This document shows positions 2,688-33,999 of a stretch of DNA of 64,000 nt, in pieces. The position numbers and the translations under genes were made by a program. Under the pieces are notes generated by a model that searched no databases, was not told the origin of the DNA, and was given only the letters and a program-made list of their open reading frames with translations. How positions within the stretch are numbered: position 1 is the first letter of the stretch; every line of letters starts with the position of its first letter. Origin of the DNA: Chroococcidiopsis thermalis PCC 7203. Its GTDB lineage: Bacteria > Cyanobacteriota > Cyanobacteriia > Cyanobacteriales > Chroococcidiopsidaceae. The stretch lies in assembly GCF_000317125.1 (NCBI RefSeq), contig NC_019695.1:358336-422335 (forward strand). Direction: 5' to 3'.

Positions 2688-3497
2688 TTACTGCTTCCAA
2701 GCTTGTGGTTGCTGAAAGGCATAGATGTCTGCAATGACTCGAACCCAACCATCAGCGACCGAGGCAAGGATGCGATCGCCTTTTTCTTTTGTCGCTACGG
2801 TCGGATCGCCTAAAATTCCTGTCTGCGTCAGATCGCGGGTTGCCCAAGCAAAAGGTAATTTCCCTTCCATTGAAAGCAGACTATCTTCAGGTAAGCCGTG
2901 AGGGTATTCTGTCACAGCCGCTTCCATTTTGACTTGTTCTGGTAAAATCGACAGCATCACACTAGTTTCAGCATCACCGGCATGAATCCCAAACTCTTTC
3001 TCGCGATCGGAAAGTAACTCTCCGGCAATGTGGGGAACCCGCCAAGTAAAGAGGGGAAATACGAGAAAATCTGCATATTTGACGTGCAAATCCCGTGCGG
3101 CAATTTCCATAATTTGGGGTTGTCCGCCGTGAGAATTCATCAACACGAATTTGCGAAATCCGGCACGGTAAATACTTTCAGCAACTTCAATTAAAGTCGC
3201 AAGTAAAGTTGACGCACTTAGGGTAATCGTGCCAGGAAAATGCCAATGTTCGTTCGATTTACCGTAGTACAAGGGTGGTAGGGCATAAGCGGGAATGCGA
3301 TCGCTTAATTGAGACAATGCCTTGCCTAAAACTGCCATACCAATTGCAGCGTCCACAATTAACGGTAAATGGGGTCCGTGTTGTTCGATCGCCCCTACAG
3401 GTTGAATGATGACGACATTTTCTTTATCCGGCATCTTTTGAATGTCAGCCCAAGAAAGATAGGGAAAAAATCGATTCGGGGAAATGTAGCCGTGCAT
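2688..3497 (-). CDS. Creatininase-family amidohydrolase
   Basis: 269 aa with the motifs GPHLP, NSHGGQ and HAGDAETS, characteristic of the creatinine amidohydrolase family. Confidence 0.75.
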   Translation of the reverse strand: MHGYISPNRFFPYLSWADIQKMPDKENVVIIQPVGAIEQHGPHLPLIVDAAIGMAVLGKALSQLSDRIPAYALPPLYYGKSNEHWHFPGTITLSASTLLATLIEVAESIYRAGFRKFVLMNSHGGQPQIMEIAARDLHVKYADFLVFPLFTWRVPHIAGELLSDREKEFGIHAGDAETSVMLSILPEQVKMEAAVTEYPHGLPEDSLLSMEGKLPFAWATRDLTQTGILGDPTVATKEKGDRILASVADGWVRVIADIYAFQQPQAWKQ

Positions 3498-3498
3498 C

Positions 3499-3553
3499 AG
3501 TTATCAGTGAAGAAAGGGTGTTGGGAGAATTCGGAATTCGGAATTCGGAATTC
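3499..3553. repeat. STRR-like repeats: (TCAGTTA)2 followed by (GGAATTC)4
   Basis: Visible tandem heptamers. The GGAATTC array recurs at 47757-47790. Confidence 0.8.
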
Positions 3554-3591
3554 ATGCGTGAATGGGTGAATGCGTGAATTGTCTTGCTCCC

Positions 3592-4587
3592 TCAGCTCTC
3601 TTCCCCCTGCTCTCTGCTCCCAGCTCGTCCCTGCTCCCTCATCAGTACATCTTCTGCTAAAGCGACTGCACCCCAAAGTGGCGCTTTATCTCCCAAGGCG
3701 GCGGGGACGATCTCGAAGTGGACTTCGGGTAATGCTGTGGCTCGCGCTATGTGGTGGATAGCATTCCAAAAGCGATCGCCTGCTTTGGTGACGCTACCAC
3801 CTAAAATAAACCGTTGGGGATTGATGAGGTTGGCGACGTTGCCAATCGCTACTCCCAAAGCCCAACCAGCTGTTTCTAATGCCTCGATCGCAATTTTATC
3901 TCCTTGGGTAGCGGCTTGACTGACCATCAGTCCCGTTATCTCATCTAGGTTATCGTGACAAAGCGATCGCAACAGCTTCCCTTTATCTGGATGTAAATTT
4001 AACCGATCCTTGGTCTGTTGGGCGATGTAGGGACCAGAAGCCAGTCGTTCTAAGCATCCACGCTTACCGCACAAACAAACAGGACCAGTCGGATCGACGA
4101 CTACATGTCCGATCTCCCCTGCCATTCCTTCTATTCCCCGCCAAGGGCGATCGTTGAGAATCCAGCCTCCACCTACACCCGTGCTGACAGTAATATAAAG
4201 CAAACTGTTATAACCCATCCCCGCACCATAGCGATGTTCGCCCAATGCCGCGACATTCGCATCGTTGTCCACACTGGCAGGAGCGCCAAATTCTCGCTCT
4301 AGGATCTCCTGTAAAGGCATATTTTCCCACCCGCTGACGTGGTGCGACAGTCTGACTTTACCGCTTGTAGCATCCACAGGTCCACCAAAGCTGACACCGA
4401 TCGCCCTTGGTTCTCTACCTGCTAACAGTTCCCGTGCCAGACTCAACATTATCTCTAGATCGGATTGAGCATGAGGATTTGGCGGTGAAAAAACCCTTTT
4501 GTCACTCAACTGGTGTTTTTCTCCTGAAGCTACCACCGCCGCCGCGTGTTTAGTTCCACCAAAATCTAGCGCCAGAATTAGATTCAT
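3592..4587 (-). CDS. ROK family sugar kinase/regulator
   Basis: N-terminal LDFGGTK ATP-binding motif and the ROK zinc signature CLCGKRGCLE. The C-terminal tail (REQGRAGSREQGEES) is a translation of the repeat DNA, so the true stop may be slightly upstream. Confidence 0.8.
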   Translation of the reverse strand: MNLILALDFGGTKHAAAVVASGEKHQLSDKRVFSPPNPHAQSDLEIMLSLARELLAGREPRAIGVSFGGPVDATSGKVRLSHHVSGWENMPLQEILEREFGAPASVDNDANVAALGEHRYGAGMGYNSLLYITVSTGVGGGWILNDRPWRGIEGMAGEIGHVVVDPTGPVCLCGKRGCLERLASGPYIAQQTKDRLNLHPDKGKLLRSLCHDNLDEITGLMVSQAATQGDKIAIEALETAGWALGVAIGNVANLINPQRFILGGSVTKAGDRFWNAIHHIARATALPEVHFEIVPAALGDKAPLWGAVALAEDVLMREQGRAGSREQGEES

Positions 4588-4589
4588 TG

Positions 4590-4680
4590 AGTGGTAATTG
4601 GTAATTGGTAGTTGGTGAATTCTTCTCTGTCCCTCTGCTCCCTTGTCCCCCTTGTCTCCCTTGTCTCCCTTGTCCTCCCT
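4590..4680. repeat. STRR-like repeats: (GGTAATT/GGTAGTT)n then (CCCTTGT)n
   Basis: Visible tandem heptamers between the ROK and hisZ genes. The CCCTTGT family recurs at 7880, 8395, 39930 and 53530. Confidence 0.85.
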
Positions 4681-5956
4681 ACTCCTTGCTCCCAGCTCGT
4701 CCCTGCTCCCTCTTCAGCGTTTCAATCTCAGCGGAACCGTCATCTTTGAGCCAAGCAATTTGTTGGATGCGGCGCTGGCGGGCGTAGGTGCGGATTTCCT
4801 CTGGTTGGCGATCGCCTAAGTCCATTTCGACTCGCAACCCAGGAGTACAGCGTAACTTTTCTGCATAGGCAAAAGCAGCCGCGTAAGCTGCTGGCGATCG
4901 AGCGACAACGAGCCAATCACTAGCGGGTGTGGCTTGCGGTAAGCGATCGGCAGACAGTAAGGCTTGTTGTAAATCTTCCGTGTTGAGGACAAAGCCAACC
5001 CCCGGAATTGTTTTACCTTGGGGATGATACAGTCCTAAAAGTTGGTCGTAACGACCTCCTTGCCCTAAAATTTGCGGTTGAGCTGTTAGATTGTCGATCG
5101 CTGCATTGCCGATGACTTCAAACACGATCCCCGTGTAATAGTCAAAGGTGCGAATCATGCTCAAATCTAGAATGATTGGAAAGTTTTGCGAGTTTTGGTT
5201 TGAGTCTACACTAAAGCATCGATCCAAAATCTCAACTAGCGATTTGAGTCGGTGTAAAGCTGCTTGTTGTGGTGCGTCTAAACTTAATTTTGTGACTTTT
5301 TGCAATACATCTGCGGGATGTCCGCGCAAATCGAGCATCACTAAAGCTCTAGCTCGTAGATCTTCGCTTAAAGGTAGAGTTTCGAGCGTGACGCGATCGA
5401 GGTGAGCGATCGCCTGTCGAACGCGATCGCGCCCAGATGCGGGGAAAGAAGCTAATAATGATTGGGTAATTTCCGCTTCGCCCAGAATCAGCTGCCAGTT
5501 GTGTAAACCCAATTCATTCAAGCACTCAGCCAGCAGTAATAACACCTCAGCATCAGCCAGCAATCCTTCGCTACCCAGCAACTCCACCCCAGTTTGATAA
5601 AACTCCAACTGGCGGTTGTGACTGCTATCGGGCGTGCGACAAAAGACGTTAGCGTTGTAGTAGAGGCGTTGCGGAAAGGTCGCTCCTGCCATCCGAGTTA
5701 CAGCAGTGCGAGCGATCGAGGCTGTCAATTCTGGACGCAACCCCAATTCTTCCTCGCGATCCTGAACTTGGATCACCGTCGATCGCTGAATTGCTCCTCC
5801 AGCCATCAGCGTATCTAACCGTTCGAGAGTTGAAGTAATGATGCGGTGATAGCCCCAACGATGAAATACCTGCTGCAACCGTTCTTCGACCCAGTGTTTC
5901 TGAGCCACATCTAAGGGTAATAAATCTCTTGCTCCCGCAGGTGATTGGTAGACCAT
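4679..5956 (-). CDS. hisZ: ATP phosphoribosyltransferase regulatory subunit HisZ (HisRS paralog)
   Basis: Class II aaRS-like core with MVYQSPAGARDLLP, ITSTLERLD, LRPELTASIAR and GGRYD. The ITxTLExLD and LRPxxTxxIAR forms fit HisZ better than HisS. The start is placed at the internal Met (MVYQSP) so the gene abuts the upstream stop at 5967. Confidence 0.65.
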   Translation of the reverse strand: MVYQSPAGARDLLPLDVAQKHWVEERLQQVFHRWGYHRIITSTLERLDTLMAGGAIQRSTVIQVQDREEELGLRPELTASIARTAVTRMAGATFPQRLYYNANVFCRTPDSSHNRQLEFYQTGVELLGSEGLLADAEVLLLLAECLNELGLHNWQLILGEAEITQSLLASFPASGRDRVRQAIAHLDRVTLETLPLSEDLRARALVMLDLRGHPADVLQKVTKLSLDAPQQAALHRLKSLVEILDRCFSVDSNQNSQNFPIILDLSMIRTFDYYTGIVFEVIGNAAIDNLTAQPQILGQGGRYDQLLGLYHPQGKTIPGVGFVLNTEDLQQALLSADRLPQATPASDWLVVARSPAAYAAAFAYAEKLRCTPGLRVEMDLGDRQPEEIRTYARQRRIQQIAWLKDDGSAEIETLKREQGRAGSKE

Positions 5957-8825: not shown

Positions 8826-8954
8826 AAGCAATTTTGAATTTTAGATTTTGGAGCCACTGCCTTGCGGAGGTTTCATCCGTTAGAGCAAGTGACACGATTT
8901 TAGATTGGTTTGAAAATATTCTTTTCTATTGTATGATGGGAGATCGCGACACCT

Positions 8955-9041
8955 GGAGAGGTGGCCGAGTGGTTGAAGGCGCAGCACTGGAAATGCTGTT
9001 TGGGGGCAACTTCAACGTGGGTTCGAATCCCACCCTCTCCG
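8955..9041 (+). tRNA. tRNA-Ser (anticodon GGA), class II with a long variable arm
   Basis: Hand-folded: acceptor GGAGAGG/CCTCTCC, D-arm with GG, anticodon stem CAGCA/TGCTG with loop CTGGAAA, long variable arm, T-arm GGGTTCGAATCCC. Confidence 0.85.
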
Positions 9042-9063
9042 TTGAAATTTCATACGTCGATTA

Positions 9064-28687: not shown

Positions 28688-28996
28688 TTGCAATACTTCT
28701 CTATGAGTCAACCTACTGCATCGATCAACACCAAACTCATTGACTCTCTGGCTCAAATTATCCTTTCCCTCACCGACGAGGAGCGCCAACTTCTGGCGCA
28801 AAAAATTCAACATTCACCGTTGTCTGAGGAAGAGCATCAACATAAAAAAGAAGCTTTACAACGAGATATTACTTTGGGTGTGGAACAACTCAAGAACGGC
28901 GACTACACCGAGTATAACGATTCCTCACTACCCAACTTATTTGAAAATATTAAGAGACGCGCTAAACAAAGACTTGAGCAGGAGCCAGCTCAGTGA
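28688..28996 (+). CDS. parD: ParD-family type II antitoxin
   Basis: GVEQLKNGDYTEYNDSSLPNLFENIKRRAKQR resembles the ParD/CC2985-type antitoxin C-terminus. ATGA overlap with the downstream toxin. Confidence 0.6.
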   Translation: MQYFSMSQPTASINTKLIDSLAQIILSLTDEERQLLAQKIQHSPLSEEEHQHKKEALQRDITLGVEQLKNGDYTEYNDSSLPNLFENIKRRAKQRLEQEPAQ

Positions 28997-29283
28997 ATCG
29001 CTTCCGTCTTTCACAACAGGCAGAACAAGACTTGGAAGATATCTGGGTTTATCTAGCACGACAGAATGAACTTTTAGCGGACAAACAGATTGCCCAAATA
29101 TTAGACCGATTCCCTATGTTATCTCAATTTCCTGATATGGGTAAACAGCGTAACAATTTACTCCCTGGACTTCGGAGCTTTCCCGTTCAGCCCTACATCG
29201 TTTTTTATACTAAAATTGCGGATGGCATCGAAATTGTTAGAGTCTTGCACCAATTTAGAGATATTGACAGCCAGTTGTCGTAA
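28993..29283 (+). CDS. parE: RelE/ParE-family type II toxin
   Basis: 96 aa; the QAEQDLEDIWVY...IVFYTKIADGIEIVRVLH pattern is typical of ParE toxins. Confidence 0.7.
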   Translation: MNRFRLSQQAEQDLEDIWVYLARQNELLADKQIAQILDRFPMLSQFPDMGKQRNNLLPGLRSFPVQPYIVFYTKIADGIEIVRVLHQFRDIDSQLS

Positions 29284-29376: not shown

Positions 29377-30420
29377 ATGGTTGTTAAACATCAAGCTACT
29401 ATTCCACGCTTAACTGAAGGTAGTATCGAACAGTTACGCAAGAGAGGATTACCTGAATGCAACACTGATGAAGAAATAGCATTAGCAATGGGAATCAGCG
29501 TCGAAAAGCTGCATTTTTTAGCTGGCGATCGCTCTATATCTTCTACTTCACTTTATTCCCGCTTTCAGATTTCCAAAAAAACAGGTGCAGCGAGAACAAT
29601 TACTGCACCAACGCCCGAACTAAAAGCTGCTCAAAGATGGATTTTAAAGCATATTTTAGATAAGATAGAAATTCACGATGCAGCTCATGGTTTTTGTCGC
29701 GATCGCTCTATTGTTACCAATGCCACACCGCATGTAGGTAGAGATGTAATAGTAAAACTCGATCTACAAAACTTTTTTCAATTAATTACATATAAACGTG
29801 TCAAAGAATTATTTCATGGTTTTGGTTATTCTGAAACTGCGGCAACAATTTTTGGATTAATCTGTACGATCGCGACAACAAATAATAGTAATAAAACGAG
29901 CTGTAAAAATATAGAAAAACGTCACTTACCTGAAGGTGCGCCAACCAGCCCTGCTATTTCAAATCTGGTTTGCGATCGCCTCGATACGCATTTAACTAAA
30001 CTTGCCAATAATCTTGGATTTCGCTATACACGTTATGCCGACGATCTAACATTTTCTTGTTATGGAGCAGCTCATAAAGTAGATAAATTAATTCAAGAAA
30101 GTAAATCGATCGTTACTCAAGAAAGCTTTACAGTTAATTCTGATAAAACTCAAGTTTTAAGCAAATCTGTACAACAAATAGTCACGGGTATTGTGGTAAA
30201 CCAACAATTAAATCTATCTCGAAAAACGTTGAAAGCTTTCCGAGCTACTTTGTATCAAATCGAACGAGAAGGTTTATCAGGTAAAAAATGGGGGAATTCA
30301 AATAATTTAATTGCTACAATTACTGGGTTTGCTAACTACGTAGCAATGGTTAACCCCAGCAAAGGCGCAGAATTTTTAGCATCAGTAGAACGGATTAAAC
30401 AGAAATGCGATCGCTCCTAA
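29377..30420 (+). CDS. Retron-type reverse transcriptase (Ec86/retron-Eco1-like)
   Basis: Clear colinear similarity to the Ec86 RT as I recall it: LRKRGLP..ISVEKL, ELKAAQRWILKHILDK, NATPHVGRDVIVKLDLQNFF, LPEGAPTSPAISNLVCDRLD, YTRYADDLTFS (YADD) and the retron-specific VTG motif (IVTGIVVNQ). Confidence 0.85.
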   Translation: MVVKHQATIPRLTEGSIEQLRKRGLPECNTDEEIALAMGISVEKLHFLAGDRSISSTSLYSRFQISKKTGAARTITAPTPELKAAQRWILKHILDKIEIHDAAHGFCRDRSIVTNATPHVGRDVIVKLDLQNFFQLITYKRVKELFHGFGYSETAATIFGLICTIATTNNSNKTSCKNIEKRHLPEGAPTSPAISNLVCDRLDTHLTKLANNLGFRYTRYADDLTFSCYGAAHKVDKLIQESKSIVTQESFTVNSDKTQVLSKSVQQIVTGIVVNQQLNLSRKTLKAFRATLYQIEREGLSGKKWGNSNNLIATITGFANYVAMVNPSKGAEFLASVERIKQKCDRS

Positions 30421-30597
30421 GTTGTGAATAAAATATACAACTTGAGTAATTTCTCGCTTGCTATTTGCGGTTGTTGTGTTAAATTTATACCGAAGTAGTT
30501 GTAAAGTTACAAAGCTGTAGTACGGGTTCTGCATACCCGACTGGTACGCTGACTCATAGTATAAGCGTATACCGCAAAGTACTTTAGCTATTGCACC

Positions 30598-30669
30598 GTT
30601 TGATTAGCTCAGTTGGTAAGAGCGCCTGCTGTATGCGGGATGACCCAGGTTCAAATCCTGTATCAAACC
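30598..30669 (+). ncRNA. tRNA-like element 1 (pseudo-tRNA; anticodon loop reduced to 5 nt)
   Basis: Hand-folded: acceptor GTTTGAT/ATCAAAC, U8, D-arm GCTC-AGTTGGTAA-GAGC, T-arm CCAGG-TTCAAAT-CCTGT. The anticodon arm folds only as CCTGC-tgtat-GCGGG, a 5-nt loop. Confidence 0.5.
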
Positions 30670-30671
30670 CC

Positions 30672-30745
30672 CGAAAGTTAGCTCATTTGGTTAGAGCAAT
30701 CGGTGTATCGCCGATTGGTAGCAGGTTCGATTCCTGTACTTTCTC
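30672..30745 (+). ncRNA. tRNA-like element 2 (non-canonical anticodon loop UGUAUCG, no U33)
   Basis: Acceptor cGAAAGT/ACTTTCt with a mismatched first pair, D-arm GCTC-ATTTGGTTA-GAGC, anticodon stem ATCGG/CCGAT with loop TGTATCG, T-arm GCAGG-TTCGATT-CCTGT. Confidence 0.5.
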
Positions 30746-31207
30746 CAAAATCCCCTCGTCCTGGGTACGGACACCTTGTTAGGGACAAGGCAATTTAACG
30801 GATACAGGTTAGGCGAAGTCTAACGCTGGACGTGTTTGTTTGATGAGTTCGTGAATTACTCTGTCATGCAGGTGTTTTATTGCAGTTCAGGAGCCAGCGC
30901 AAATGTAATTCTCTCTAACTTGAGTATGTCCTTCGTTTTCCCAATCCGATTCTCTACAGAGACTCTGGCACAGGCAAATCGAACGGCGTATTTGAGCGTT
31001 GTTGGCTTTGGTTGAATTACCTTCGGGTGTTCTGGCAAGGTTACAGCACTCTTCATCCAGTTTTGGAGAATCTTTTGCCCGCACCAAGATTGTTAACCCC
31101 TGTACTGGCAGAGTAAAACATATTTTTGTATTATATGTAGTATACCGAAATTATCTTGCTAAGGGTTGTAAGCTCCTGGTTAGTAGCTAAAGCTGCCAAA
31201 AAGACGA

Positions 31208-32794
31208 ATGTTCTTATCTAATCTTCTCCGGCGGGTACAGTTGCCCAAATTATCGATTCAAATTTCTATGTGGAAAACCTTTTACATCAAGCCTAACGAA
31301 ATCGGAATTTTATATTACCGCAGCGATTTTAAGAAGATTTTACAGCCAGGAACTTACACTTATTTGGGTCGCCACTGGCAAGTCAAAACTTATGACTTGA
31401 ACCAGCCAGAAGTTAAGATTGAAAATTTAGAATTATTGCTCAGAACCCACGAAGCCGAATTACAAGAGCATCTATTAATTATTAGAACAGCATTTAACCA
31501 AGCTGCTTTAGTACGCTGCGGTCAAACCTGGATAAGTGTCATGCCAAATCAACTACGTGCTTTTTGGCGTGGCTTTATTGAGGTAGAATCTCATATTTTC
31601 AATTTAGAAGAAAGTCTAGAATTACCTGCTGAATTTGTTCAGCAATTGCGCGGACTTGCCATAAACGGATTGAAAAAATTCCAAATTTCAGAGTATGAAA
31701 TTGGCTTGCTATACGTTCAAAATAACTTTATTAGACCTCTAGAACAAGGGGAATATGCTTTTTGGACTGTAAATCGGGATGTTGCACTAAGAACTCTCAG
31801 CCGGATCGTACCTAACCCAGACTTTCCACTAGAAGATGTAATGATTGAACAACATCCTGAGTTTGTTTCAGCCTATTGCGAAGTCGTACAATTACAAGAT
31901 CGACAAGTAGCAATTGTCCGGTATTTGGGTAAAGTTATTGCTATTTTGCCACCTACAAGCCGCAAGTTATTTTGGCGCGGTGTGGAATTGGAAATGATCG
32001 ATATTAGTAGCAATGCTAAATTATCGCCTAATTTAGTAGCAGAATTGTTGGCAGGTTCTAAAGAAGTTCTATTACTAAGCCATAACAGTTTGCACGTTCG
32101 AGAAGTACCCGCGCAGCACGTTGGTTTATTGTATGTAAATCAAGAATTTCAAGCTTTACTAGAGCCAGGAATACATGCTTGGTGGTTGTATGGACGCTCC
32201 TTTCAAACTGAAGTGATTGACATGCGTTTGCAAAATATCGAGGTATCCGGTCAAGATATTCTATCAAAAGATAAAGTTCCTCTACGCTTGAACTTAACTG
32301 CTGGTTTTCGCATTCAAGATCCGCTGAGAGCAAAAAATGGTTTATCAGATATTTCTAGTTTCTTGTATAAAGAATTACAGTTTGCTTTACGTGCAGCAGT
32401 TGGCGAACAAACTTTGGATGCACTATTAGAAAATAAAGGTGCGATCGATCGCAGTGTTGCTGAATACATTCGTAGCAAAACCGCAGACTATGGAATTGAA
32501 GTTGATTCTGTCGGGGTGAAAGATATAATTTTACCTGGCGAGATTAAGACAATATTGAGCAAGGTAGTAGAAGCGGAAAAAGCTGCTCAAGCAAACGTAG
32601 TTAGACGCAGAGAAGAAACCGCAGCTACTCGCAGTATGTTAAATACTGCAAAAGTGATGGAAGATAACCCTGTTGCTTTGCGTTTGAAAGAATTGGAGGT
32701 ATTAGAACGAATTGCAGAAAAGATCGATCGCATTCAAGTTAATGGCAGTTTAGATAGTATTTTGACCGAATTAATTCAGATTAATCGGCAATAA
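31208..32794 (+). CDS. SPFH/band-7 (stomatin/prohibitin-like) protein with three degenerate N-terminal SPFH-N repeats
   Basis: The C-terminal half is a canonical band-7 domain plus coiled coil (KDIILPGEIKTILSKVVEAEKAAQANVVRRREETAA). The N-terminal 300 aa hold three repeats of an E(I/Y)G(I/L)LY...PG(T/E/I) motif. Confidence 0.75.
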   Translation: MFLSNLLRRVQLPKLSIQISMWKTFYIKPNEIGILYYRSDFKKILQPGTYTYLGRHWQVKTYDLNQPEVKIENLELLLRTHEAELQEHLLIIRTAFNQAALVRCGQTWISVMPNQLRAFWRGFIEVESHIFNLEESLELPAEFVQQLRGLAINGLKKFQISEYEIGLLYVQNNFIRPLEQGEYAFWTVNRDVALRTLSRIVPNPDFPLEDVMIEQHPEFVSAYCEVVQLQDRQVAIVRYLGKVIAILPPTSRKLFWRGVELEMIDISSNAKLSPNLVAELLAGSKEVLLLSHNSLHVREVPAQHVGLLYVNQEFQALLEPGIHAWWLYGRSFQTEVIDMRLQNIEVSGQDILSKDKVPLRLNLTAGFRIQDPLRAKNGLSDISSFLYKELQFALRAAVGEQTLDALLENKGAIDRSVAEYIRSKTADYGIEVDSVGVKDIILPGEIKTILSKVVEAEKAAQANVVRRREETAATRSMLNTAKVMEDNPVALRLKELEVLERIAEKIDRIQVNGSLDSILTELIQINRQ

Positions 32795-32895: not shown

Positions 32896-33999
32896 TTAAT
32901 AATAAAATTTAGCAATTTTTTGGGCGATCGCACCCCATTTAGAATTTTGAGTCACAGCTGCCCAATAAGCAAAGCCGCGAATTGCCATGTTGTGATCGAC
33001 GGCTTTCACCTTGCCAGTTCGTCCGGTTTCCTGCCCTGCGGTGCGAGTATTGCCCTGAGTGCTAATTTCTCCTGAAGCTAAAACTCTGGTTTGCTGCCAT
33101 GCTAAGGCTTTCTCAATCGCTGTTTTTACTTTTGGCGTGAGGGGATCGTCTGGAAAGTAAGTCACCCACCGCTGAGCATACACTACACCTACCATTTGAT
33201 AACTACTATCATGCCCGCCTTTTTCTGGATTAATCCCATTTGGACGCTGTAAAGTTAAGCCTTCCTGAAGTGACTGACGGGCATATTTCATCAACTCTGC
33301 ATCCCCAGTTAGTTTGCTGGTTAACCCCAAGGCTACTGCAACTGCATATCGGCGATGGGTGTAAGGCTGGTTGCGTTTAATTCCCTGTTTCCAGACATCT
33401 TGAGAAATCATCCAACGGGCAGCATGTCTAACCAAAGGCTTGTAACGCGATACTTGTGCTGCATACTTATTTGCTTGGGGAGACTGCTGGATGACTAAGA
33501 GACTATGGGCAACTGCTTGTACAAAGAACGAAGTACTATGGAAAGGATCGCCTGTTCCCTTAAAACTACCGTCCGCAGCCTGTTGCTTGAATCCCCAGTC
33601 AAACATTCTGAATCCCGCTTGGATGGCTTTAGGATTGTTGCTGACTAACCCACCAATCACCAATCCTTCACCGTAGCGTTGCGCTTCAATATACCATTTG
33701 TTTGTCCGATGACGCTCCCAGTCGATGTTGGTACTATGCGCCCCACTCGGTGATATAGCATTATATGACTTAGAAAGGCGACGGTAGAGAGAATTGCTAA
33801 TGAGATTGGATGACTCGTAGTGAAAGTCTGTACGCTTTCTATTTCTCTGAGTTGGGGGAGTTGAAATCGGACGTTTAGCAACATCAAATTGAGATATGCG
33901 ATCGCGTGTATCTGTCAAAATTAATGGAGAGGCGATCGCTTTTTCCCCAATTTGTACTGAGAATAGTAATAGCATCGCCAACAAACTGCGTACTTTCAC
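32896..33999 (-). CDS. Secreted hypothetical protein, possibly polysaccharide-active
   Basis: Signal peptide. The only functional hint is its position at the end of the glycosyltransferase cluster. Confidence 0.4.
   Translation of the reverse strand: MKVRSLLAMLLLFSVQIGEKAIASPLILTDTRDRISQFDVAKRPISTPPTQRNRKRTDFHYESSNLISNSLYRRLSKSYNAISPSGAHSTNIDWERHRTNKWYIEAQRYGEGLVIGGLVSNNPKAIQAGFRMFDWGFKQQAADGSFKGTGDPFHSTSFFVQAVAHSLLVIQQSPQANKYAAQVSRYKPLVRHAARWMISQDVWKQGIKRNQPYTHRRYAVAVALGLTSKLTGDAELMKYARQSLQEGLTLQRPNGINPEKGGHDSSYQMVGVVYAQRWVTYFPDDPLTPKVKTAIEKALAWQQTRVLASGEISTQGNTRTAGQETGRTGKVKAVDHNMAIRGFAYWAAVTQNSKWGAIAQKIAKFYY

Follow-up and report, generated by a model that had tools for sequence, protein, structure and literature searches.

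We analyzed two tandem tRNA-shaped elements in a 64,000-nt stretch of DNA from the cyanobacterium Chroococcidiopsis thermalis PCC 7203 (contig NC_019695.1, positions 358,336 to 422,335 of the forward strand; hereafter the window, with coordinates counted from its first nucleotide). Both elements are tRNA-derived, and their anticodon arms are unable to decode. Together with the sequences on either side, they belong to a conserved structured RNA of cyanobacteria that is about 630 nt long, carries tRNA-like modules and is referred to here as the unit. The interpretation that we favor, with somewhat better than even confidence, is that the elements are non-decoding tRNA mimics serving within this RNA as handles for RNase P or for proteins, and that the retron-type reverse transcriptase (RT) encoded just upstream has co-opted the RNA as its partner.

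The two elements were examined with ARAGORN, Rfam, an Infernal alignment and RNAfold. ARAGORN called two adjoining tRNA genes, at 30598-30671 ("Tyr-GTA") and 30672-30746 ("Ile-TAT"), and the Rfam tRNA model RF00005 matched element 1 (30598-30669, +) with 44.8 bits and element 2 (30672-30745, +) with 44.3 bits (E about 3e-6 for both in the 64-kb window). The only genuine tRNA of the window, tRNA-Ser(GGA) at 8954-9042 (+), scored 64.4 bits and was used as internal reference. No tmRNA was found by ARAGORN or Rfam. An earlier note, prepared from the sequence alone, had described two tandem tRNA-like elements whose acceptor, D and T arms are intact, and the calls of both programs bear this out. Element 1 has an A-type body with a perfect 7-bp acceptor stem (GUUUGAU/AUCAAAC), normal D and T arms and a variable loop of 5 nt. 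Its anticodon arm reads CCUGC-UGUAU-GCGGG, and the Rfam alignment and RNAfold agree on the 5-nt loop UGUAU (30630-30634) that had been folded by hand. The Tyr-GTA reading requires opening of the closing C:G pair and would yield U37. Nor does the short variable loop agree with the long variable arm of bacterial tRNA-Tyr. Element 2 has a B-type body with the acceptor stem nGAAAGU/ACUUUCn and the anticodon arm AUCGG-UGUAUCG-CCGAU. The absence of U33 from its loop (30704-30710) and the mismatched first acceptor pair had been pointed out in the note, and they correspond to G33, accompanied by C37, and to a C1:U72 mismatch; in RNAfold, two more pairs, U32·G38 and G33-C37, can form within the loop and reduce it to the triloop UAU. 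The remaining features of the hand-made folds were also recovered: both elements have U8, the D-loop GG (G18G19) and the T-loops TTCAAAT and TTCGATT, share a TGTAT core and are separated by 2 nt (CC, 30670-30671). CCA is not encoded after either of them, the tails reading CCCC and CCAA. In a decoding tRNA, the anticodon loop has 7 nt, with U at position 33 and a purine at position 37. Neither element has such a loop, and the rule of one anticodon identity per orthologous gene with a matching body is broken as well (see below). The note had considered that canonical calls by a standard tool would show its folding to be wrong; ARAGORN does call both elements, only by forcing non-canonical features on them.

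The elements lie downstream of the RT gene, as had been reported, with the RT stop codon at 30420, 177 nt upstream of element 1. The next gene codes for an SPFH protein, and the 787-nt spacer between the RT and SPFH genes holds both elements and is conserved as DNA over its whole length across genera. Within this spacer, the unit extends from about 30488 to 31120 and is organized as a 5' domain, tRNA-like modules (one to three in the different copies), a linker and a 3' rod. A putative extended -10 promoter (TGT-TAAATT, 30477-30485, +) is located just 5' of the first helix, and its consensus TGnTA[ACG]ATT is conserved at the point where conservation of the unit starts. The 5' domain (30488-30597, +; nhmmer 94.9 bits) was folded by RNAalifold and pair counts into a three-way junction with the hairpins CGGGU-UCUGCAU-ACCCG (30523-30539) and GGUACGC...GCGUAUACC (30543-30574), shows compensatory changes (GGG/CCC to AGG/CCU) and ends only 0-3 nt before the 5' end of the first tRNA-like module. 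The linker, which in the window is of the type that we call d flavour (AAAAUCCCCUCGUCCUGGGUACGGACACCUUGUUAGGGACAAGGC, 30747-30791, +; nhmmer 41.5 bits), is kept in all d-flavour units, folds into two small hairpins and is able to form a pseudoknot. The 3' domain (30856-31120, +; nhmmer 244 bits) is a non-coding rod of about 265-270 nt defined by structure and covariation, in which a 16-bp stem (30858-30873 with about 31098-31114) closes a series of inner helices and a three-way tip. A small open reading frame (ORF) in this domain was considered and rejected, because codon periodicity is absent (0.203/0.211/0.192) and the length of 746 of 768 gap runs is not divisible by 3.

In all, 46 distinct sequences of the unit were recovered across cyanobacteria, and in every case nhmmer detected the 5' domain, the linker and the 3' domain around the tRNA-like elements. 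Metagenomes were scanned in an unbiased way, using as query the 3'-domain signature and neither of the two proteins nor the tRNA-like part; about 28 matches were true units, and the other 14 or so correspond to chance expectation. Conserved elements with compensatory changes were present in Chroococcidiopsis, Gloeothece, Nostoc, Kamptonema, Chamaesiphon and many metagenomic lineages, loci free of RT included. RNAalifold predicted 127 pairs in the unit, and counting of these pairs gave 97.3% paired (at most 46% in slid controls). Changes on both sides of a pair occur at 21 pairs of the whole-unit fold, a number that none of 500 shuffles reached (10.9 ± 2.2). The strand of the unit is fixed as + by its many G·U pairs. 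In Rfam, both at the gathering score and at E ≤ 5, only tRNA and a sub-threshold match to YrlA were obtained for the unit.

Nostoc loci contain two paralogous copies of about 560-760 nt. The copy upstream of the RT gene has a tandem A+B pair with canonical CUCAUAA loops, and the one between the RT and SPFH genes has a single B element with the UGUAUCG loop of element 2 of the window. At another locus (L105:3863-5298, +), two complete tandem units precede one SPFH gene, the first of them followed by GGGCATT/GGTCATC short repeats. Other sequence features of the unit were inspected. Pairing of the NCCA to a UGGN of the 3' domain, in the manner of a T-box, was discarded as inconsistent across flavours, and a 10-nt repeat of the window (I22, 30741-30750 with 31061-31070) is not conserved in other units. 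An NtcA site (GTA-N8-TAC) occurs in the tail of some Nostoc units only. A plasmid or phage origin of the unit was also rejected, the only matches being generic ones of about 60 nt to tRNA arms in unrelated taxa, and no similarity of the unit to plasmid DNA was detected.

The tRNA-like modules themselves were compared across copies. Cloverleaf statistics were obtained on 51 distinct elements, and arm-by-arm parsing defined three bodies, A, B and C. Cloverleaf positions are paired in 95.9% of cases (77.6% in shuffles and at most 42% in slid controls). Both partners have changed in 16 of the 21 pairs, and a covariation score of 0.551 was obtained, which compares with 0.196 for shuffles and at most 0.123 for slid controls. 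The first acceptor pair (1:72) is unpaired in 31 of the 51 elements, so that the mismatch of element 2 is a family trait. The acceptor, D and T arms and the nucleotides of tertiary contacts are near-invariant, and it is the anticodon arms that differ, in sequence and in loop length (3-7 nt), forming discrete variants whose stems covary. The A body (GUUUGAU/AUCAAAC) is represented by 24 distinct sequences, eight of which have loops of 4-6 nt (among these UGUAU, CUAAA, ACCAA, GAAGA, AGCAA, AGAA and GAGUAA), and the B body (nGAAAGU/ACUUUCn) by 39. Only four sequences have a C body, with acceptor UGCGGAA/UUCUGCC, a swapped D stem GAGC/GCUC, the anticodon stem UUGGG/CCCAA and the loops CUUGUC, CUAAUAA, UUCAAAA and UUGAUAA (L030:6545-6618, L042:3099-3173, L110 and L112). 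More than 12 different loops or "anticodons" are found on the A and B bodies at orthologous positions.

The loops of B elements separate perfectly by linker flavour. A UGUAUCG-like loop is present in 18 of 18 d-flavour units, the window included, and u-flavour B elements have loops in the canonical C-U-NNN-A-A frame, most commonly with CAU but also with GUU, GAU, CAG or a UCC-type loop; elements outside typed units carry the anticodons UAG, UCU and UUU. Elements of the u flavour reach 60-70 bits, like real tRNAs, and d-flavour ones 44-52 bits. An NCCA is encoded after most u-flavour B elements. The apparent defects of the elements in the window are therefore conserved character states of the d-flavour unit. 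In Gloeothece PCC 7424, the A module reads CCUGC-CUAAA-GCGGG, keeping the stem of the window and a 5-nt loop, and the B module reads AUGGG-UGUAUCC-CCCAU, in which the stem is compensated with respect to AUCGG...CCGAU of the window and the loop is conserved. In Anabaena PCC 7120 (L082:4845-4905) and Fischerella (L085:5375-5405), module A is reduced to its acceptor helix GUUUGAU/AUCAAAC, with the interior mostly lost; these remnants resemble a natural "minihelix" deletion series. A common anticodon arm of A and B modules, GAGCGAUCGACUCAUAAUCGAU (e.g., L004:3468-3490), embeds a HIP1-like GCGATCG, and sequence of this type may have shaped the stems. Kissing between the anticodon loop and the linker (GUAUC with GGUAC, 5 bp in all d-flavour units) was considered, but the loops are near-invariant and the few variants gave a mixed picture; collapse of the loop to a triloop closed by G33-N37 suits the variants better. 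By inspection, no co-variation was seen between the B loop and the hairpin loop of the 5' domain.

To which gene the unit is linked was deduced from its neighborhoods. All units have the same orientation as the gene located 6-650 nt downstream of them, which is an SPFH gene (in most cases), an RT gene, a gene for an OmdA/YdeI-like protein or, once, a gene for a VIT+vWA protein. The last of these cases is on the minus strand of locus L112, in which a three-module unit (A, B-like and C) at 5043-5807 is followed 38 nt later by a gene for a 761-aa VIT+vWA protein (2720-5005). In the window, the gene downstream of the unit (31208-32794, +) codes for a 528-aa SPFH/Band-7 protein of the "slipin family" (Pfam Band_7, 7.8e-29), which is the orthologue of Anabaena Alr0740 and is about 80% conserved throughout cyanobacteria. 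Its 100% identity to a protein of C. thermalis PCC 7203, together with the HIP1 palindromes of the window, agrees with this strain as the source of the DNA. The SPFH gene follows the RT gene in all short-RT loci with tRNA-like genes (77-83% identity). Its surroundings are of a housekeeping kind in Anabaena PCC 7120, Gloeothece PCC 7424 and Fischerella, where the unit again precedes it and no RT is nearby. The occurrence of the unit in genomes with no RT in the vicinity indicates that the SPFH gene, and not the RT gene, is its primary partner. The OmdA/YdeI-like gene is also about 80% conserved, and in Anabaena (alr0739) it is placed between the unit and the SPFH gene. Of the roles that the earlier note had proposed for the elements (decoys, regulators or components of the neighboring defense system), that of regulators or components came closest to these results, with the correction that the partner is primarily the SPFH gene and not the retron RT.

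The SPFH protein was further characterized from its AlphaFold2 model (pLDDT 75.8), which consists of two beta-rich N-terminal modules, the SPFH domain and long C-terminal helices. The two N-terminal modules are mutually homologous (2e-10), and the protein has no obvious transmembrane segment. Foldseek aligned the model with stomatin, prohibitin and HflK/C over about 230 columns, and with the Major Vault Protein (MVP) over its full length (570-650 columns, E about 1e-13, TM score 0.28). A preprint on bacterial MVP deals with proteins other than this SPFH family. Variants of the SPFH protein with 640-675 aa (P0122, P0124, P0136, P0138 and P0142) are about 65-75% identical to it over 95-100% of the query, and their roughly 130 extra residues could represent an additional repeat module. 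In the window, an ORF of 367 aa (32896-33999, -) that converges on the SPFH gene has no match in Pfam, NCBIfam or PADLOC.

In Anabaena PCC 7120, the unit lies at about 860,580-861,150 of BA000019.2, and the genes that follow it, alr0739 (OmdA-like) and alr0740 (slipin), have been studied in relation to the regulator TrcR. These genes were derepressed 72- and 42-fold, respectively, in a trcR deletion mutant, which ranks them among the most strongly derepressed genes of that mutant, and TrcR bound the alr0739 promoter fragment in electrophoretic mobility shift assays (PMC10272220). Chloramphenicol raised the expression of both genes by a factor of more than 8, and it likewise induced the 26-gene trn tRNA operon, rtcB, rsgA and further genes; TrcR, whose operator is TGTAGTAT-like and overlaps -10 boxes, was proposed by the authors to be the functional equivalent of RtcR, and it also controls rtcB (PMC10272220). 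C. thermalis PCC 7203 is among the species with a conserved trcR promoter, and long non-coding RNAs were outside the analysis of that work (PMC10272220). A motif scan of the window identified TrcR-type operator/-10-like motifs, TGTATTAT and TGTAGTAT (31127-31134 and 31136-31143, both +), in the unit's tail, and 65 nt separate them from the start codon of the SPFH gene; these are matches at the sequence level only. Of the 46 unit tails, 31 carry the motif TGTA[GT]TA[TC], its position being fixed at about 14 nt past the closing stem, and the background for it in the window is 0.047 per kb per strand. A further sequence resembling the TrcR operator, TGTAGTAC (TGTAGTT in most other units), lies inside the 5' domain of the window (30516-30523, +), and it could be either a DNA operator of the unit's own promoter or part of helix 5. 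The earlier note had also alluded to the aberrant tRNAs of cyanobacterial tRNA arrays. What the unit locus and these arrays have in common is the TrcR/translational-stress regulation of the downstream genes (PMC10272220), and there is no sequence relationship to plasmid-borne DNA.

The RT of the window (29377-30420, +) has 347 aa and belongs to a short clade of the type XIII family (RT clade 10; PADLOC RT_XIII, 3.4e-148; Pfam RVT_1). The motifs NAxxH, YADD and VTG were read in its translation, and it lacks the N-terminal extension of about 120 aa of canonical type XIII RTs. We collected 80 genomic loci encoding relatives of this RT and built a neighbor-joining tree. Genes for tRNA-like elements were found only beside the closest relatives, the short RTs, which form one clade (323-369 aa as called, plus one truncated copy) with 24 of 24 members beside a unit. 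Long RTs (464-703 aa) are unit-free, except for a nested lineage (L089 and L107; 484 aa; RT_XIII, 1.5e-200) that stands independently beside a unit followed by the OmdA-like gene. The RTs of this lineage (L107:4211-5665, +, and L089) are full-length RT_XIII proteins and are accompanied by neither SWIM/ARM partners nor the msr motif; upstream of them are a 303-aa ORF with no family match, with a similar-sized ORF at the same place in L043, and a NUDIX protein that matches the PADLOC candidate PDC-S07. In contrast, the ordinary long-RT loci are textbook type XIII retrons, with WGR/HEAT-ARM_XIII, SWIM_XIII (1.8e-237) and a gap of about 270 nt that contains a 25-30-bp a1/a2 stem, the conserved msr motif and a long msd hairpin. 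This canonical msr motif was present in at least 32 long-RT loci and in 0 of 24 unit-adjacent RT loci, and it is absent from the window. Likewise, no PADLOC match to SWIM_XIII or WGR/HEAT-ARM_XIII was obtained among 10 neighboring ORFs at 25.6-38.4 kb, no a1/a2-type inverted repeats were found around the RT gene and the unit of the window, and nhmmer detected no homology to the unit in canonical type XIII loci. The retron neighbor mentioned in the earlier note is thus confirmed as an RT of the RT_XIII family; it is not an ordinary retron, given the absence of partner proteins and of msr-msd. We interpret the RT as a secondary recruit to the unit, from a clade that has lost the classical msr-msd, both partner proteins and the N-terminal extension. 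That RT lineages with no classical non-coding RNA (ncRNA) have twice come to stand beside the unit argues that the unit is their RNA partner. In Nostoc, moreover, the closing stem of the 3' domain ends about 17 nt before the ATG of the RT, which is the position of a retron ncRNA, and these RTs must be transcribed through the unit. Just upstream of the RT gene of the window there is a ParDE-like pair (28688-29283, +), formed by a ParE_toxin gene (28993-29283; Pfam 3e-20) and an overlapping 102-aa ORF (28688-28996) that is probably the antitoxin. This pair is kept together with the RT in Chroococcidiopsis FACHB-1243 (L001), and loci of the Nostoc type have a second copy of the unit at that place instead.

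Taking the anatomy of the unit together with its conservation, we propose the following mechanism. The unit would be transcribed from its own extended -10 promoter at about 30477-30485, and its L-shaped modules would be read by enzymes that sense the shape of a tRNA and not its anticodon. RNase P is predicted to cut at the 5' ends of the modules, at 30598 and 30672/3, releasing the 5' domain, whose 3' end would thereby be defined, along with one or two tRNA-like RNAs of about 72 nt and the linker with the 3' domain; RNase Z or the CCA-adding enzyme might also recognize the modules. The near-invariance of the acceptor, D and T arms, together with the shrinkage of module A to its acceptor stem in some genomes, fits selection on the "top half" of the tRNA, the part recognized by RNase P, RNase Z and the CCA-adding enzyme, and an intact 7-bp acceptor stem stacked on the T arm is combined here with a dispensable anticodon arm, as in processing signals of the mascRNA type. 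In this scheme, the anticodon arms would be compact hairpins and not decoding loops, the modules would offer tRNA-binding factors a tRNA-shaped docking site during the TrcR translational-stress response, and the RT would most likely use the unit RNA as its cognate RNA in replacement of msr-msd.

Several observations weigh against this interpretation. The loops are conserved within each flavour, which a pure processing signal does not need, and they probably have an additional role. Elements of the u flavour score like real tRNAs and may be aminoacylated, and those of the window lack an encoded CCA. The TrcR-type promoter motif at the tail of the unit suggests that the SPFH mRNA may start downstream of it, in which case the unit could be a separate RNA and its link to the SPFH gene merely positional. 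As regards the RT, the unit is not closed by a repeat of the a1/a2 type around msr- and msd-like hairpins, which makes it difficult to account for priming on it by a retron RT. In every organism, finally, the unit is known from sequence.

Other explanations were considered. One of them gives the unit a primarily retron-like function, in which complementary DNA synthesis by the RT would be primed or templated by some segment of it, be it the tRNA-like 3' ends, where NCCA is often encoded, or a different one, and copies with no RT would use a distant one or be relics. The adjacency to RT in all 24 short-clade loci and in one independent long-RT lineage, the loss of canonical msr-msd in all these loci, the Nostoc unit at the ncRNA position and the NCCA encoded after most u-flavour B elements speak for it. 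We nevertheless regard this function as unlikely, since most units have no RT within several kb and still show strong purifying selection and covariation, CCA is not encoded by the elements of the window, no a1/a2 architecture or conserved unpaired G past the closing stem is present, and no primer-binding-site-like complement to the tRNA-like 3' end was seen. A similarly low probability is given to the modules being decoys or sensors for enzymes that damage tRNA (anticodon nucleases, or tRNases of phages or toxins), whose binding or cleavage of the mimic would announce an attack on translation and trigger a response of the SPFH protein or the RT. Here, the many anticodons displayed on a constant body by u-flavour B elements and their relatives (CAU, GUU, GAU, CAG, UAG, UCU, UUU and UCC) look like specificity swapping, the downstream genes share the TrcR regulon with the RNA-repair ligase gene rtcB, and the neighborhood includes a ParE toxin gene and a retron-type RT. 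However, the loops UGUAU and UGUAUCG of the window mimic no known anticodon loop and can close to tight hairpins, the SPFH gene is about 80% conserved in housekeeping contexts, unlike fast-evolving defense genes, and PADLOC has no model for the SPFH, OmdA or VIT-vWA proteins.

The constant co-orientation of the unit with a gene 6-650 nt downstream, and the transcription of the u-flavour RT gene through it that is implied by a start codon about 17 nt after the 3' domain, could also mean that the unit is a cis-acting leader, whose modules would regulate the downstream gene through RNase P-dependent stabilization or destabilization of the mRNA or through binding of translation factors, and not as a separate RNA. 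This seems rather improbable to us, because the spacing between unit and SPFH gene is variable (in Anabaena, a whole OmdA-like gene is inserted), a TrcR-type -10/operator between unit and gene suggests a separate promoter, and the unit, with its 630 nt and three structured domains, greatly exceeds known leaders in size. That the elements are ordinary decoding tRNA-Tyr(GUA) and tRNA-Ile(UAU), as called by ARAGORN and in line with RF00005 scores above gathering for both, is very improbable in view of the 5-nt loop of element 1 (unless a C:G pair is broken) and its short variable loop, of G33, C37 and the C1:U72 mismatch in element 2, of more than 12 different "anticodons" on the same bodies at orthologous positions, and of scores of 44-45 bits against 64 for the real tRNA-Ser. 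Hardly credible, finally, is the proposal of the earlier note that they are pseudo-tRNAs marking an old integration site, in this case attachment-site remnants decaying after integration of an island with the RT. In its favor, the AT content of the RT region is somewhat raised, and the ParDE-like module lies at its flank, but the GC content of 0.39-0.41 at 29-33 kb does not single out the AT-rich island that had been described, as the AT content is just as high or higher in several other stretches of the window, and no integrase or direct-repeat borders were found at the locus. Above all, the defects are conserved across genera and cyanobacterial orders, RT-free loci included, with compensatory changes in the stems, which shows that the elements are not decayed tRNAs or scars of integration.

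Regardless of the mechanism, these results point to a large and widespread family of structured RNAs in cyanobacteria that carries full tRNA mimics at a stress-regulated locus, and a tRNA-mimicking RNA at a TrcR-controlled locus is a candidate player in the stress response. An RT of the type XIII family that has twice independently given up msr-msd and its partners beside a tRNA-like RNA constitutes a natural experiment in retron evolution. The elements are also an annotation hazard: labeled as tRNA-Tyr, tRNA-Ile(UAU), tRNA-Met, tRNA-Asn and so on, they will distort analyses of tRNA sets and codon usage. A bolder proposal, to which we assign little probability, is that the unit RNA and the SPFH protein (with the OmdA-like protein, the VIT-vWA protein and the RT where present) form a stress-induced ribonucleoprotein, in which a cage or ring of SPFH protein would surround the RNA or be loaded with it, the tRNA mimics would dock to the translation or tRNA-repair machinery and, in strains with RT, the RNA would be reverse-transcribed from a tRNA-like start. 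Were this true, bacteria would possess a counterpart of Ro/Y-RNA or vault-type particles and, in strains with RT, a retron with its msr-msd exchanged for a tRNA-tagged RNA, a living tRNA-like "genomic tag" used by a bacterial RT.

Mimicry of tRNA in ncRNAs and retron RTs are known kinds of things, and what is apparently undescribed is this RNA family, its linkage to SPFH and the RT clade; no prior description of the unit RNA, of its SPFH linkage or of an RT clade using it was found in the literature searched. Among large bacterial RNAs, GOLLD and ROOL are ornate, phage-borne and located near tRNA genes. The unit resembles them in being a multi-domain structured RNA of more than 500 nt tied to tRNA-type sequences, and it differs in that it has no Rfam match, is chromosomal and cyanobacteria-wide, and is tied to one protein gene. 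With the tRNA-like 3' tag of the Mauriceville retroplasmid and the tRNA primers of long-terminal-repeat elements, it shares the physical association of an RT with a tRNA-shaped RNA, often with an encoded CCA; in this case, however, the RT is of retron type, most units have no RT, and priming by the unit is a conjecture. Type XIII retrons (Mx162, Mx65, Ne144 and Sa163) have the same RT family, and the Nostoc unit occupies the position of their ncRNA, but SWIM_XIII, WGR/HEAT-ARM_XIII, the N-terminal RT extension, the msr motif, the a1/a2 stem and the msd hairpin are all missing, and the neighboring RNA also occurs with no RT at all. The L-array "trn" tRNA operon of Anabaena PCC 7120 likewise consists of unusual tRNA-type genes in the TrcR regulon with an adjoining TGTAGTAT-type operator; unlike its approximately 26 decodable tRNAs, the unit has one to three elements embedded in a structured RNA, and those of the window cannot decode.

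Processing signals in long RNAs offer another parallel. In the MALAT1/mascRNA signal, a structured domain abuts a tRNA-like element in the same geometry. This signal, the tRNA punctuation of mitochondria and RNase P sites in bacterial operons share with the unit a non-decoding tRNA shape with a reduced anticodon arm that abuts a structured upstream domain, the 3' end of which is here predicted to be defined by RNase P. In contrast to signals of the mascRNA type, the unit is bacterial, has its elements in tandem and between two domains, and has loops conserved per flavour, which implies functions beyond cleavage. With the eukaryotic vault (MVP, PARP4, TEP1 and vault RNA), the locus shares the full-length Foldseek alignment to MVP, a small structured RNA and, in one case, a VIT+vWA protein encoded after the unit, the same two domains being paired in PARP4; we consider this likeness an intriguing analogy and no more. 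Nearest in concept is the rsr-yrlBA-rtcBA operon of Salmonella, since this RtcR-controlled operon encodes Ro60 together with YrlA, a Y RNA with a tRNA-like module. YrlA and other bacterial Y RNAs are, like the unit, ncRNAs with a tRNA-mimicking module in an operon related to translational or tRNA-damage stress. YrlA (RF02553) was also the only match in Rfam other than tRNA, although with 18.6 bits against a gathering score of 69 (E = 2.6), and no match to TROVE/Ro60 was found among the ORFs neighboring the unit. The unit departs from YrlA in its full four-arm cloverleaves, one to three per RNA, in its large flanking domains and in its SPFH partner gene. The two systems meet again in their regulators, since TrcR has been described as the functional equivalent of RtcR and likewise controls rtcB (PMC10272220).

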